Part shown: positions 12,103-32,508 of the stretch, in pieces
Position numbering within the stretch: the stretch's first letter is position 1
Layout: each line of letters opens with the position of its first letter
Origin: Desulfuromonadales bacterium
GTDB taxonomy: Bacteria > Desulfobacterota > Desulfuromonadia > Desulfuromonadales > Geopsychrobacteraceae
Reading direction: 5' to 3'
Assembly: GCA_032251255.1 (NCBI GenBank)
Contig: JAVVDY010000005.1
Span: 59,091 to 123,090 of the forward strand
Length of the DNA: 64,000 nucleotides
The notes under the pieces: model-generated
Database searches by the model: none
What the model was told of the DNA's origin: nothing
What the model saw: only the letters and a program-made list of their open reading frames with translations
Position numbers and translations under genes: made by a program

Positions 12103-12138
12103 AAAAAAAACCCCGTGACCTAGGAGGGGATCACGGGG
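12103..12138 (-). terminator. Intrinsic terminator, minus strand
   Basis: Minus strand reads ccccgtga...tcacgggg followed by TTTTTTTT (plus-strand a-run at 12103-12110). It is the only terminator-like element downstream of the small gene at 12372-12554. Confidence 0.7.
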
Positions 12139-12371
12139 CAAGGATTTGGGAGGTATTTCTTGGAAAGCTTTGTCATTCTTTTCAACGATCCGCCTGCCAC
12201 AACGAAGCGTTGATGGTCTATATATTACCTTTTTAGTCAGATATGTCAACCAAAAAATGGCCGTTTTTGAAATTAATTTTCAAAAAGACCTATCTACCTG
12301 TTTTGTAAATGTTTTTTTTAAAATAGTTCGAACTAACGCAGAAGCTAACAGCTGGCACAGCCAGGAAATGC

Positions 12372-19361: not shown

Positions 19362-20060
19362 ATGATTCATCAGCGATACTTCAGACCGGGGCAAAAAGTT
19401 CTGTTGAGGCCTTCAGCATCATCCACCCCCGAGGGGCATATCCGCCTGCTGAGCAGCTACCTGCAGGGCGGGGGAGATGACTATTTTGACTTGACTCTTC
19501 CCTACGGTGCAGATGCCGCCAATCAGTATCCGTTCCATGAAGAGATGGATCTCGAACTTAGTTCCGACAGCCTGGGCTTAGGCGCCCGGGTCAGCGGTCG
19601 CTTCCGTGAAGTCATTTCCGGGAATAAAATCCGGATCCACGTTTATCCGGACCTGCAGATGTTTCAGCGGCGCGCCAAACCACGCGTTGACTGTCGCCTC
19701 GGTATCCGCTTCACCAGAGGTCGTGGCACCCTGCAGATCATGCGTGAGACCTGGGAAAAAAATGTCAACCTGCTGAGCAGCGACAAATCACCGGCCAAAT
19801 TGTCCGGCTTCAATGAATGTAAAATCAACCTCAGTTCAGGCGGCATACGGTTTGCCATCCGCCCCCCTGCTGAACCTGCTGACCTCTGCCTGCTGCTGAT
19901 CAACCTTGATGATGGTCATCCTCCCATCTGCGCACTGGCGGAAATCATCTGGTCGATTCCGGATCAGCAGGGCGAGGTCCTGCTCACCGGCATGCAGTTT
20001 CTCGACATCCTTGAAAAGGACCAGCAGCGGATTGACAGTTTTGCGCAAAAGCACCGATAA
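19362..20060 (+). CDS. PilZ-domain protein (YcgR-like two-domain architecture)
   Basis: RRAKPRVDCR (RxxxR) and INLSSGGIRF (D/NxSxxG) motifs in the C-terminal half. Confidence 0.8.
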   Translation: MIHQRYFRPGQKVLLRPSASSTPEGHIRLLSSYLQGGGDDYFDLTLPYGADAANQYPFHEEMDLELSSDSLGLGARVSGRFREVISGNKIRIHVYPDLQMFQRRAKPRVDCRLGIRFTRGRGTLQIMRETWEKNVNLLSSDKSPAKLSGFNECKINLSSGGIRFAIRPPAEPADLCLLLINLDDGHPPICALAEIIWSIPDQQGEVLLTGMQFLDILEKDQQRIDSFAQKHR

Positions 20061-22232: not shown

Positions 22233-22260
22233 TTGACTTTAATAATTAGCCTACTATAAT
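22233..22260 (+). promoter_or_regulatory. Near-consensus sigma-70 promoter
   Basis: TTGACT (22233-22238), 16-nt spacer, TATAAT (22255-22260). Confidence 0.7.
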
Positions 22261-22267
22261 AATTTTA

Positions 22268-22360
22268 CGCTAACTCTTTTAGCAATAGTAAACCTGCAGT
22301 GATGCAGGGACACAACGCCACGGGTCCTTGACCAAGACAGCCGGTTTGCCGAAGAGAGCG
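22268..22360 (+). promoter_or_regulatory. GEMM-I cyclic-dinucleotide riboswitch aptamer (GEMM-Ib / 3',3'-cGAMP-type signature)
   Basis: By-eye alignment to the GEMM-I fold. The closing stem is cgcuaacucuu / aagagagcg. Next comes AAACC-ugca-GUGA-ugca-GGGACACAACGCC, then a second hairpin ACGGG...GACAGCCGG. There is an A at 22287 where c-di-GMP aptamers have G20. Confidence 0.8.
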
Positions 22361-22375
22361 TAACGTGCTGCATGA

Positions 22376-22420
22376 GAAACGCTTGCCTTCGTTAACGAAT
22401 GCAAGCGTTTCTAGGTTTTG
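22376..22420 (+). terminator. Riboswitch expression-platform terminator
   Basis: gaaacgcttgc-(14 nt)-gcaagcgtttc followed by taggTTTTgg, 65 nt upstream of the DUF4395 start. Confidence 0.7.
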
Positions 22421-22485
22421 GCTTTAGAAACTCGAGATCCTGAACGGGCAGCAGCAGTGCCCACACCAGAGGAGGCATCGACAGC

Positions 22486-22956
22486 ATGGCCGCCTATTGC
22501 CCTATCGGGCCAAGCAATGTAGACCAGACAATCGTCCGCGGGGTCGCGTTCATGACGCTCTGTTCAATTGCATTATTTCTTGCCTATAATCTTGATTTCA
22601 TTTTAGTCTACCTGCTGTTTGATTTCTTCATGCGGGGTTTTCTGAGCAGGAAAATGAGCGCCTTTGTGTGGCTGTCACAAAGGCTTACGCGCGCCTTTGC
22701 GTGCAAAATCGAGCCGGTCAACGCTGAACCGAAAGTCTTCGCAGCCAGAATCGGCTTCATCACCTGCCTGCTGATTCTGCTCTGCAAAGGACTGAATCTT
22801 GCTCTGCTGGCTTATTGTCTGAGCGCCGCCCTGATGCTGGCCGCTGCGCTGGAAAGCGTCTTTTCGGTCTGCCTGGGCTGTTACATCTATAACTTGATCA
22901 ATCATGAACACACCCCATCAGCGGCAGCGGGAAAAGCCCACCTGGATGAATGTTAG
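22486..22956 (+). CDS. DUF4395 integral membrane protein
   Basis: 156 aa with about 4 hydrophobic helices. The N-terminus ...NVDQTIVRGVAFMTL...LLFDFFMRGF matches the DUF4395 pattern as I recall it. GAGGAGG RBS. Confidence 0.65.
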   Translation: MAAYCPIGPSNVDQTIVRGVAFMTLCSIALFLAYNLDFILVYLLFDFFMRGFLSRKMSAFVWLSQRLTRAFACKIEPVNAEPKVFAARIGFITCLLILLCKGLNLALLAYCLSAALMLAAALESVFSVCLGCYIYNLINHEHTPSAAAGKAHLDEC

Positions 22957-23006: not shown

Positions 23007-24230
23007 ATGCCCCCTAACAGACGTGCCACCGCCCTGCTGCTGATACTGCTCGTTTGGCCTGGTTTCTCCTGGGCAACCAACGGATATTTTCAGCATGGGA
23101 TCGGGGTCAAGGAGCAGGCTCTTGGCGGGGCTGCTATCGCTTATCCTCAAAGTGCCCTGTCAGTCGCGACCAACCCGGCCGCAGCAGCAACGCTGGGCAG
23201 ACAGTTCGATATCGGGTTCAACTGGTTCACCCCGCACCGCTTCGCCGACAATGGCGACGGAACCGGCTACCACAAGAGCGATTGTGACGATTTCATTATT
23301 CCCCAGATTGGCTACAACCATCCGCTCAGTCCGAAAATATCCTTCTCATTTGCCGCTTACGCAAACGGAGGCATGAAGACAGACTGGCCCTATAACTTCT
23401 TTGGCACGACAGAGACCTATTCAGAACTTGAGCAGATGGTCATTGCTTCCACCCTGGCGCTCAATCTGAATCGAGAACATGCACTCGGCCTGTCAATCAA
23501 TTACATCCGTCAGACCTTTGAAGCTCGAGGCCTGCAGGGTTTTGCGCCGGCGACGTCGAGCGGTACGGCAACATATCTCACTGACGGTGGAGAGGACGTT
23601 TCAAGCGGCTGGGGCCTGCGGATCGGATATTCGGGACAGCTGACTCCTGCTTTACGTGTTGGTGCCTTCTGGCAACCCCGCACCAAGATGACCGCGTTTG
23701 ATGATTATCAAGAGCTCTTCGCCGAAGGGGGCGAGCTGGACATCCCTGAGACGTTCGGACTCGGTCTGGCAGTGGATCTTTCCGAGAAGCTGACCCTGGC
23801 GACCGACCTGGTAAAAATCCGCTATTCGGACATTCCTGCCCTGGGCAATTTCAATACGGTAGGAACCGATCTGCTGGGGACTGACAACGGGCCCGGTTTC
23901 GGCTGGCGGGACATCACCGTAGCCAAACTGGGAATCGCTTATTTCTACAGCCCCGCGCTGACCCTGCGTGTCGGCTGGAACCATGGTGAAAATCCGGTGA
24001 GGAGTAGCCAGACCGGAATGAACGTCCTTTCTCCGGCCACGATTGAAGACCATTTAAGCGTTGGATTCAGCTGGGCTTTTTCTGAGAAAACGGATATGTC
24101 GGTGACCTACTGGCATGGGTTAGAAAATGAAATCAAGGGAAACTTTGCGACAGCCAATGGGGGGGATGCGGCAGATATCAAGATGCACCAGGACAGCGTC
24201 AGTCTCGCCTGGTCCTGGTCGTTCGATTGA
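23007..24230 (+). CDS. Outer-membrane transport protein, OmpP1/FadL/TodX family
   Basis: Signal peptide, then TNGYFQHGIGVKEQALGGAAIAYPQSALSVATNPAA (typical FadL N-terminal hatch). Beta-strand-rich, ending in an aromatic residue (...SWSFD). Confidence 0.85.
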   Translation: MPPNRRATALLLILLVWPGFSWATNGYFQHGIGVKEQALGGAAIAYPQSALSVATNPAAAATLGRQFDIGFNWFTPHRFADNGDGTGYHKSDCDDFIIPQIGYNHPLSPKISFSFAAYANGGMKTDWPYNFFGTTETYSELEQMVIASTLALNLNREHALGLSINYIRQTFEARGLQGFAPATSSGTATYLTDGGEDVSSGWGLRIGYSGQLTPALRVGAFWQPRTKMTAFDDYQELFAEGGELDIPETFGLGLAVDLSEKLTLATDLVKIRYSDIPALGNFNTVGTDLLGTDNGPGFGWRDITVAKLGIAYFYSPALTLRVGWNHGENPVRSSQTGMNVLSPATIEDHLSVGFSWAFSEKTDMSVTYWHGLENEIKGNFATANGGDAADIKMHQDSVSLAWSWSFD

Positions 24231-30804: not shown

Positions 30805-32508
30805 ATGAGCCCCCCGCAGGAGCCACTGAACGAGAAGAATGGCGATTTTGCCGAACTCTATCGCAAAACGCCGATCATGATGCATTCCATCGATCGCCAG
30901 GGCTGTCTGCTGGCCGTCAGTGATTTCTGGATCGAAGTCATGGGCTATACCCGGGAGGAGGTGATCGGCACCCACCTGACCAGGTACCTGAGCGAAAGCT
31001 CCCGGCGTGCTGCAGAGGAGACCTACCTGCCGCGATTTCTCCGGGTCGGTCAGGCCAGGGATGTACCCTACCAGATGGTCAAGAAAAACGGCGAGATCAT
31101 CGACGTGCTGATTTCCGCCGCGTCGGAAAAAGATGCCGAAGGGAATGTGCTGCGCAGCATGGCGGGGATTGTCGATGTCACCGAGCAGAAAAGGGCCGAA
31201 CAGGAAATCTACCGGCTGGCGCATTATGACCAGCTGACCGGCAAACCGAACCGGTTTCTGCTCCGTGACCGCCTGCACCAGAACATTGCCCAGGGCAGCC
31301 GCGAAGGGCACAAACTGGCGGTACTGTTTCTCGACCTCGATCGCTTCAAGTGGGTCAACGACACCCTCGGTCATCATGCCGGCGACAAGTTGCTGAAGAT
31401 CGTCGCCGAACGACTCAGTTTATGCGTTCGAGAAGTTGATACGGTCGCCCGCATCGGCGGCGATGAGTTTGTTGTTGTCCTCTACGGCATTCTGTCCAAC
31501 GAGGACCCGGCAACCTTTGCCCGCCGCTTTCTCGAAGAGCTCTCCCGGCCGACCCGGATTGAGGGGAGGGAGATTATCAATACGGCCAGTATCGGCATCG
31601 CCATCTACCCGGAGGACGGCCATGATGTTGACTCGCTGCTGCGCAAGGCGGATACGGCGATGTACGCCGCCAAGGAACTCGGCTGTGGCACCTATCAGTT
31701 TTTTTCCACGGAGATGGCCGAGCGGGCCAGAGAGAAACTCTTGATCCAGAACCAGCTGCGCCAGGCTCTCTACGGCACAGACCTCACTCTCAGCTATCAG
31801 CCGCAGATCGACCTGCGGCTCAATCGCATCACCGGATTCGAGGCGCTGCTGCGCTGGAATTGTCCGACACTCGGCCAGGTCTCTCCGGCCCGCTTCATTC
31901 CGGTTGCCGAGGAAACGGGCTTGATCCTGCCGCTCGGAGAATGGGTCCTGCAGACCGCCTGTACCCAGGCTGTCGCCTGGCGAAAGGCGGGGATGCCGCC
32001 ATTGCGGATGGCGGTCAACATCTCCGCCCGTCAGTTCTCCCGTCCGGATTTTACCGACATGGTTGAACGGGTTCTCAGTGACACGGGGCTTGAACCGGAG
32101 TACCTGGAAATTGAATTGACCGAGAGTACGGTTATGGACCGGATGCAGGACGCCATAGCAACCCTGACCGACCTGAAGGTCAGGAAAATCAACCTGGCCA
32201 TTGATGATTTCGGCACCGGATTTTCATCCCTGGTCTATCTGAAAGACTTTCCGTTCGACCGGATCAAAATCGCCCAGGAGTTTGTCCGCGACATCTCTCA
32301 GGGATCGGACAACAGGGCGATTGTCTCGGCGATTATCGCGATGAGCCGCACCCTGAACCTGCACGTTATCGCTGAGGGTGTCGAAAAACTAGAGCAACTG
32401 AAATTTCTGCAATCCCAGCAGTGCCATGAAGTCCAGGGATATTATTTCAGCCGACCGGCTCCCGCCGAACTGATCTCCAAAGCGTATGCCACCGGAGCCC
32501 TGAATTGA
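30805..32508 (+). CDS. PAS-GGDEF-EAL cyclic-di-GMP turnover protein
   Basis: A PAS domain, then an intact GGDEF with an RxxD I-site (REVD-TVARI-GGDEF) and canonical NDTLGHHAGD. The EAL domain has EALLRW, DDFGTG, EGVE and QGYYFSRP. ATG at 30805 with an AGGAGC RBS. Confidence 0.9.
   Translation: MSPPQEPLNEKNGDFAELYRKTPIMMHSIDRQGCLLAVSDFWIEVMGYTREEVIGTHLTRYLSESSRRAAEETYLPRFLRVGQARDVPYQMVKKNGEIIDVLISAASEKDAEGNVLRSMAGIVDVTEQKRAEQEIYRLAHYDQLTGKPNRFLLRDRLHQNIAQGSREGHKLAVLFLDLDRFKWVNDTLGHHAGDKLLKIVAERLSLCVREVDTVARIGGDEFVVVLYGILSNEDPATFARRFLEELSRPTRIEGREIINTASIGIAIYPEDGHDVDSLLRKADTAMYAAKELGCGTYQFFSTEMAERAREKLLIQNQLRQALYGTDLTLSYQPQIDLRLNRITGFEALLRWNCPTLGQVSPARFIPVAEETGLILPLGEWVLQTACTQAVAWRKAGMPPLRMAVNISARQFSRPDFTDMVERVLSDTGLEPEYLEIELTESTVMDRMQDAIATLTDLKVRKINLAIDDFGTGFSSLVYLKDFPFDRIKIAQEFVRDISQGSDNRAIVSAIIAMSRTLNLHVIAEGVEKLEQLKFLQSQQCHEVQGYYFSRPAPAELISKAYATGALN

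Follow-up and report, generated by a model that had tools for sequence, protein, structure and literature searches.

A GEMM-I riboswitch with the pocket signature of the cGAMP subclass and a probable OFF-type platform precedes a DUF4395 and FadL-family operon in a Desulfuromonadales bacterium

We analyzed the leader of a two-gene operon in a 64-kb stretch of DNA from a Desulfuromonadales bacterium (contig JAVVDY010000005.1); the whole stretch of 64,000 nucleotides (nt) is called the window below, and its features lie on the + strand unless stated otherwise. The first gene of the operon (22486–22956), preceded by the Shine–Dalgarno (SD) sequence AGAGGAGG at 22468–22475, encodes a 156-amino acid membrane protein of the DUF4395 family (PF14340, E 8e-24). 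The second (23007–24230) encodes a 407-amino acid outer-membrane transport protein of the OmpP1/FadL/TodX family (PF03349, E 6e-27), whose N-terminus resembles a signal peptide; both open reading frames (ORFs) are intact. MDT8420039.1, a protein of a Desulfuromonadales metagenome-assembled genome (MAG), matches the DUF4395 protein with 100% identity, and the nearest genome match is Desulfuromonas sp. BM509 (81%). The leader contains an RNA element that we read, with moderate confidence, as a transcriptional riboswitch of the GEMM-I class; the element has A, A and C at pocket positions 20, 47 and 92 (numbered as in the Vc2 aptamer) and stands at the 5′ end of the two-gene mRNA; it would most likely sense the cyclic dinucleotide 3′,3′-cGAMP (cGAMP below; made of GMP and AMP) and would turn the operon OFF. 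GEMM-I riboswitches that respond to cGAMP have been known since 2015, and the characterized cases activate extracellular electron transfer genes of Geobacter. This genus, classically placed in Desulfuromonadales, is the source of most characterized cGAMP riboswitches.

The full window was scanned with cmscan against 4227 Rfam families, with the curated gathering scores as cut-off, and RF01051 (c-di-GMP-I, for cyclic di-GMP) was the only family matched above its gathering score (GA). The match, at 22277–22353 (+), spans the entire model (1–87 of 87) with 47.2 bits against a GA of 35 and an E value of 4.1e-06, which bears out the GEMM-I assignment made in an earlier, sequence-only reading of this DNA. 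The RNA has the GEMM-I (c-di-GMP-I) riboswitch fold, a three-way junction with two hairpins, closed by the helix P1. In the RF01051 alignment, the first hairpin (22293–22308) carries a GUGA loop and the second (22316–22347) the conserved AG bulge (22339–22340). Pairing across relatives also marks 22277–22353 as a GEMM-I aptamer. We compared seven distinct aptamers, namely the window copy and those at the loci L001, L002, L004, L011, L013, and L014. With the Rfam structure imposed on them, 97.1% of the cells were paired, against 34–43% with slid partners, and three aptamer pairs showed compensatory changes. Since the diversity is low (87% column identity), the covariation support for the aptamer is modest, not strong.

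P1 joins the 5′ strand ACGCU-AA-CUCUUU (22267–22279) to the 3′ strand GAAGAG-A-GCGU (22351–22361), in agreement with the closing stem described earlier. By RNAfold and duplexfold, it comprises 5 + 6 bp (11 bp) with a 2-nt bulge and has an energy of −14.0 kcal/mol; it is by far the longest P1 among the related leaders (−14.0 vs −3.9 to −6.2 kcal/mol). The 3′ strand is the switching strand, with two alternative partners, and in the ligand-free fold, 22269–22283 are predicted to be able to form an alternative small hairpin (GCUAA/UUAGC). The outer P1 helix starts exactly at the predicted transcription start, about A22267. Upstream of it, the sigma-70-type promoter TTGACT-16-TATAAT (22233–22260) that the sequence-only reading had picked out was recovered in a promoter scan with 11 of 12 consensus matches, its −35 element TTGACT being at 22233–22238 and its −10 element TATAAT at 22255–22260. 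The 2-kb region contains four promoter-like sites, compared with 1.0 ± 1.0 in shuffles. Orthologous leaders have promoters at an equal distance (TTGACA-17-TATAAT in L004 and TTGACA-17-TATTAT in L014).

The identity of the pocket bases bears directly on the subclass of the aptamer. At the Vc2 G20 position, whose base touches the ligand's alpha nucleobase, the window has an A, A22287. It aligns to model position 11 of RF01051 and corresponds to A14 of Gs1761; in a MAFFT alignment it shares a column with the A of pilM, a cGAMP switch of Geobacter metallireducens, and with the G of Cd1, a c-di-GMP switch of Clostridioides difficile, both reference sequences having been taken from the supplementary information of PMC9262584. 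The RF01051 alignment also places the equivalents of A47 and A48 at 22314–22315, A47 (A22314) being the intercalating adenine, and the equivalent of C92 at C22349, the base that forms the Watson–Crick pair with the ligand guanine (G-beta). Thus, the A at the G20 position claimed by the sequence-only reading was confirmed, and the check that it had proposed on the C92 equivalent returned a C. Position 49 is C22316 in the window and A in the orthologues. In the helix that follows position 20, G22288-C22313 and U22289-A22312 replace G21-C46 and C22-G45 of Vc2. The junction CAAUA (22283–22287) is identical to that of pilM and matches the pocket residues A11, A12, U13, and A14 of the 4YAZ structure (PMC7288161). 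As a sequence signature, A/A/C at positions 20/47/92 is that of the cGAMP subclass, GEMM-Ib.

The window RNA shares much with the Geobacter members of GEMM-Ib (Gs1761/pgcA, Gmet_0970, and pilM): the RF01051 fold, A20 together with A47 and C92, a GNRA loop on the first hairpin, a second hairpin of the form GGGUC...GACAGCCGG with the AG bulge, the CAAUA junction (pilM), and, as predicted for the window, transcriptional control via an intrinsic terminator. The likeness of its 3′ half to the crystallized Geobacter aptamer, which the sequence-only reading had pointed out, is genuine but amounts to the GEMM-I consensus and does not discriminate between subclasses. We also considered, and rejected, membership in the variant families RF03167 (GGC) and RF03168 (UAU), variants reportedly named by Weinberg in 2017 after the bases at positions 20/47/92 (G/G/C and U/A/U). 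The overall sequence is close to these two variant models, as RF03167 is the best-scoring model for the orthologous leaders (56.6–65.4 bits) and the window reaches 44.9 bits with RF03168. Yet the orthologues, which do pass the RF03167 threshold, have A at positions 20 and 47, and the UAU model has U at the C92 position where the window has C. Because its pocket bases, A/A/C, differ from those of both variants and its RF03168 score lies below the GA of 65.9, the window RNA is not a GGC or UAU variant.

Leaders of the same subfamily were recovered at L001 and L008; at L002; at L004, L005, L006, and L010; at L013; and at L014, and a metagenome pattern scan returned three loci, one of them a duplicate. 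Five of the six distinct related leaders precede the same DUF4395 and FadL-family operon. The gene pair is kept in L002, L003, and L008; in L004, L012, and L013, the DUF4395 gene is followed by a second gene truncated by the contig end. Not every copy of this operon has the riboswitch, since the region upstream of it at L003 (1–244; 62% identity) is AT-rich and gave no GEMM-I match. Position 20 is A in six of the seven sequences compared (the window, L001, L002, L004, L011, and L013) and G in L014 (AAGGGUAAACC). This G20 leader (L014:60–200) lies on a contig of ENA ERZ778602 and shares its metagenome of origin with the A20 leader L004; its DUF4395 orthologue is 64% identical. To judge from these sequences, related organisms seem to have this operon preceded by one or the other type of pocket, A20 or G20. 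Aptamers of the same A20 subfamily were also seen in another setting, at L011 (2330–2480) and on the − strand of L009 (2720–2870), with an unrelated strong terminator and different downstream genes. These genes encode a 72-amino acid Cys-containing protein and a 321-amino acid membrane protein, neither of which has a Pfam match.

Among the related aptamers, the window copy is the most degenerate, because it has three mismatches and a score 9–18 bits below those of the full-length orthologous leaders. The non-canonical pairs C22316·U22347, C22318·U22345, and C22327·A22335, all within the second hairpin, occur only in this copy. They make up three of the four unpaired cells of the seven-sequence alignment and are absent from the orthologues, and two of the three sit in the helix that stacks directly under the pocket. 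The Rfam scores are 47 bits for the window vs 56.6–65.4 bits for four full-length orthologous leaders, values that come from different models of the clan. These features weigh against the reading of the element as a working sensor. The mismatches could lower its affinity, or they could reflect assembly or consensus errors of the MAG rather than real divergence; an exact look-up of the DUF4395 protein in assemblies gave no record, and L015, the one further assembly of this protein cluster, extends 52 nt upstream and leaves the leader uncovered. At the extreme, the aptamer would be decaying or non-functional, with mismatches that abolish binding, and the leader would be a constitutive attenuator consisting of a promoter and a leaky terminator. 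The complete loss of the riboswitch from the orthologous operon at L003 would fit such a course. We nevertheless regard decay as improbable: the score is still 12 bits over the curated cut-off, the pocket bases are all intact, the long and stable P1 could compensate for the mismatches, the antiterminator and terminator described below are intact and balanced, and both downstream ORFs have been kept.

The aptamer is followed by a predicted intrinsic-terminator hairpin at 22375–22412 (−26.5 kcal/mol by folding), which has 12 + 4 bp (16 bp), a UUAA loop, and one C·U mismatch. Its U-rich tail consists of UUUU at 22416–22419 and UUU at 22423–22425, and the element ends at 22425. The sequence-only reading had proposed a terminator formed by a hairpin and a U-run. 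The hairpin is real and longer than it had stated; the U-run, however, is weak. Two observations speak against termination at this site, namely that the U-run is interrupted (UUUCU AGG UUUU GG CUUU) and sub-canonical and that the hairpin 22375–22412 went uncalled in a simple terminator scan. We retained the terminator in spite of the scan because of the U-tracts of the orthologues and the conservation of the hairpin. Good U-tracts are present at L002, L004, L011, L012, L013, and L014; the homologous hairpins of L004, L012, and L014 have 6–7 U right after the stem, and that of L002 has a U-rich stretch there. Across five homologous hairpins, 92% of the terminator pairing is retained, with one compensatory pair (C-G to U-A), and L011 and L013 carry strong hairpins of unrelated sequence at the same position. 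The possibility that the hairpin is a dispersed repeat was rejected, as it is present in a single copy in the window.

The arrangement of the aptamer and the terminator bears on the direction of switching. The two have no nucleotides in common, the terminator starts 13 nt past P1, and the minimum free energy (MFE) structure of the full-length leader holds P1 and the terminator together. Folding also predicts an antiterminator (22350–22391), in which 22350–22354 pair with 22387–22391 and 22356–22361 with 22379–22384, and which cannot form together with either P1 or the terminator. When the growing transcript was folded, the MFE structure was the antiterminator, with P1 abandoned, for ends at 22385–22400, and then again P1 plus the terminator. 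All seven leaders, the two whose terminators are unrelated among them, are predicted to form an equivalent pairing of CGAAG(A) with (U)CUUCG. Among the homologous hairpins, the 5′ arm of the terminator is near-invariant and the 3′ arm is variable, as would be expected if the 5′ arm had two partners. In the window, the antiterminator (−13.9 kcal/mol) and P1 are balanced in energy.

Because the aptamer and the terminator coexist and an antiterminator competes with them, the opposite of the situation in pilM, we read the platform as one of ligand-induced termination, probably an OFF switch like Cd1. Transcription would start near 22267. Ligand binding would lock the 11-bp P1 (22267–22279 with 22351–22361) and leave 22375–22391 free to pair with 22396–22412; the terminator hairpin would then form, RNA polymerase would stop at the U-rich stretch, and the operon would be OFF. 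Without ligand, the 3′ strand of P1 and the two bases 3′ of C92 (22350–22361) would pair with the 5′ arm of the terminator (22379–22391) as it emerges, and this antiterminator would delay the terminator long enough for read-through, leaving the operon ON. The energies do not all favor this scheme: the terminator exceeds the antiterminator in stability by about 12.6 kcal/mol, and a crude findpath estimate of the barrier is only 6.4 kcal/mol in the window and 6.4–10.4 kcal/mol across the seven leaders. Read-through in the ligand-free state would have to rely on kinetic trapping.

The closest precedent for such a platform is Cd1, a c-di-GMP OFF switch in which the aptamer and the terminator coexist and an antiterminator competes (PMC9262584). 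In Cd1, as in our model of the window, the antiterminator uses nucleotides just 3′ of the ligand-pairing C, and ligand leads to termination. The two differ in that Cd1 has G20 and senses c-di-GMP, and in that the tail of its aptamer pairs, in the antiterminator, with the loop and 3′ arm of the terminator, whereas that of the window would use the 5′ arm. Cd1 also has a much longer linker, and it regulates a flagellar operon in a Firmicute.

The cGAMP switches on record point in the other direction. pilM is an ON switch in which the aptamer and the terminator are mutually exclusive, the terminator sequestering C75 (PMC9262584), and an example from Desulfobacca is predicted to be ON (PMC9481103). 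In G. sulfurreducens, the roughly 17 characterized or predicted genes under GEMM-I control all fall when cGAMP synthesis is lost by deletion of gacA (PMC6456294). By these precedents, ligand would prevent termination in the window as in Geobacter GEMM-Ib. We consider this very improbable here, since an ON switch would need a terminator built with aptamer nucleotides, as that of pilM sequesters C75, and the terminator of the window lies clear of P1 and is present beside the folded aptamer in the MFE structure. Moreover, the sole complementarity found between the aptamer and the platform, in which the aptamer tail matches the terminator's 5′ arm, gives OFF; with no overlap between terminator and aptamer, ON switching was rejected. 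Translational control by sequestration of the SD sequence was rejected as well, as inspection of the leader sequences by eye showed no conserved anti-SD element and the terminator explains the platform.

An ON-type platform is typical of GEMM-Ib, though not strictly defining, and the window lacks one. Unlike the Geobacter switches, which are ON and have a terminator that overlaps the aptamer, the platform of the window reads as OFF, with a separate terminator and an antiterminator made from the 3′ strand of P1. The window differs from them also in its three stem mismatches, in the pairs next to A20 (G-C and U-A, compared with C-G and U·G in pilM), and in its target, a DUF4395 protein and a FadL-family channel in place of cytochrome, pilus, and polysaccharide genes.

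For the ligand, the behavior of other A20 aptamers is the main guide. The A20 aptamer Gm0970 is about 1600-fold selective (PMC8835794), and A20G flips Gmet_0970 to c-di-GMP selectivity (PMC6456294). The sequence-only reading had taken this single change as the established determinant of cGAMP selectivity, a generalization that fails for two aptamers that bind both ligands. The values for Vc2 G20A are 53 nM with c-di-GMP and 120 nM with cGAMP; a natural A20 aptamer, Cbe 1-2, binds c-di-GMP more tightly, at 30 nM vs 463 nM for cGAMP (PMC6140456). The same study describes "a number of" GEMM-Ib members as bispecific and calls bispecificity widespread in the class (PMC6140456). In a Desulfobacca A-variant found among near-identical G-type aptamers, the affinity for cGAMP was up and that for c-di-GMP slightly down (PMC9481103). 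Selectivity is also altered by mutations outside the pocket, according to PMC9262584, which cites Ren 2015. A20 is required for cGAMP preference but is not sufficient for it.

Proteins of cyclic dinucleotide signaling are encoded on either side of the operon. A PilZ-domain protein, one of a family of c-di-GMP receptors, is encoded 2.2 kb upstream of the riboswitch (19362–20060, +) and is followed by a DnaJ-domain protein and an RdgC-like protein. In a PAS-GGDEF-EAL protein (30805–32508, +), the GGDEF motif is intact and GHHAGD keeps the canonical Asp. The Asp at this position is replaced in Hypr enzymes (PMC7288161). Synthesis of cGAMP is the work of Hypr GGDEF enzymes such as GacA or of DncV/CD-NTase enzymes. 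Since the protein retains it, we take this to be an enzyme of the c-di-GMP type, not a Hypr cGAMP synthase. A Hypr GGDEF protein within the window was therefore rejected, and no cGAMP synthase was seen in the 64 kb, the sole GGDEF protein being the one with the canonical Asp.

The same RNA with the same architecture may respond to c-di-GMP, or to both ligands equally; it would then be a regular OFF switch of the c-di-GMP-I type, with A20 by chance. We hold this to be unlikely, though it is a serious alternative, as documented A20 aptamers (Vc2 G20A and Cbe 1-2) bind c-di-GMP equally well or better. The L014 leader in front of the same gene has G20, so the regulon tolerates a c-di-GMP-type pocket. 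The PilZ and PAS-GGDEF-EAL proteins supply c-di-GMP components nearby, the lack of a cGAMP synthase in the window counts against the cGAMP reading, and the OFF architecture matches that of a c-di-GMP switch, Cd1. The base pair adjoining position 20 is G-C in the window and C-G in pilM; the corresponding pair of Vc2 is G-C, as in the window. On the other side, A20 is kept in six of the seven leaders, and the CAAUA junction is the same as in a validated cGAMP switch, pilM. In Geobacter, A20G alone converts a selective cGAMP aptamer to c-di-GMP, and because that one change is enough, G would be the better solution if c-di-GMP were the target. The organism also belongs to the Desulfuromonadales, a lineage in which cGAMP signaling is established. 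Taken together, these sequence features suggest that the window RNA most likely binds 3′,3′-cGAMP and possibly c-di-GMP too.

One further match to an RNA family was seen in the window. A stretch of the − strand, 12113–12300, weakly resembles the RgsA small RNA model; its 24.8 bits (E 0.06) fall far short of the gathering score of 88.4, and this match is unrelated to the riboswitch and probably due to chance.

The riboswitch family is already known. For an OFF-type A20 representative, or for control of DUF4395 or FadL genes by such an RNA, we found no report in the accessible literature, the supplementary lists of the 2015 papers excepted. A literature search returned no functional study of DUF4395, the matches retrieved being unrelated papers. 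Beyond the reading favored above, we suggest only tentatively, as a possibility well short of even, that the element is a natural cGAMP-selective OFF riboswitch that shuts a FadL-type channel and a DUF4395 protein, and that toggling between A20 and G20 moves this operon between the cGAMP and c-di-GMP regulons in close relatives.

In practical terms, the window riboswitch is a candidate to put through a simple assay of ligand binding and of termination. The A20 and G20 leaders of the orthologous operons would constitute a natural experiment on the reassignment of an operon between two second-messenger regulons by a single base. If the OFF logic holds, cGAMP would also repress genes directly through RNA, and its targets would extend to a FadL-family outer-membrane channel, a family for hydrophobic compounds, together with a DUF4395 protein.

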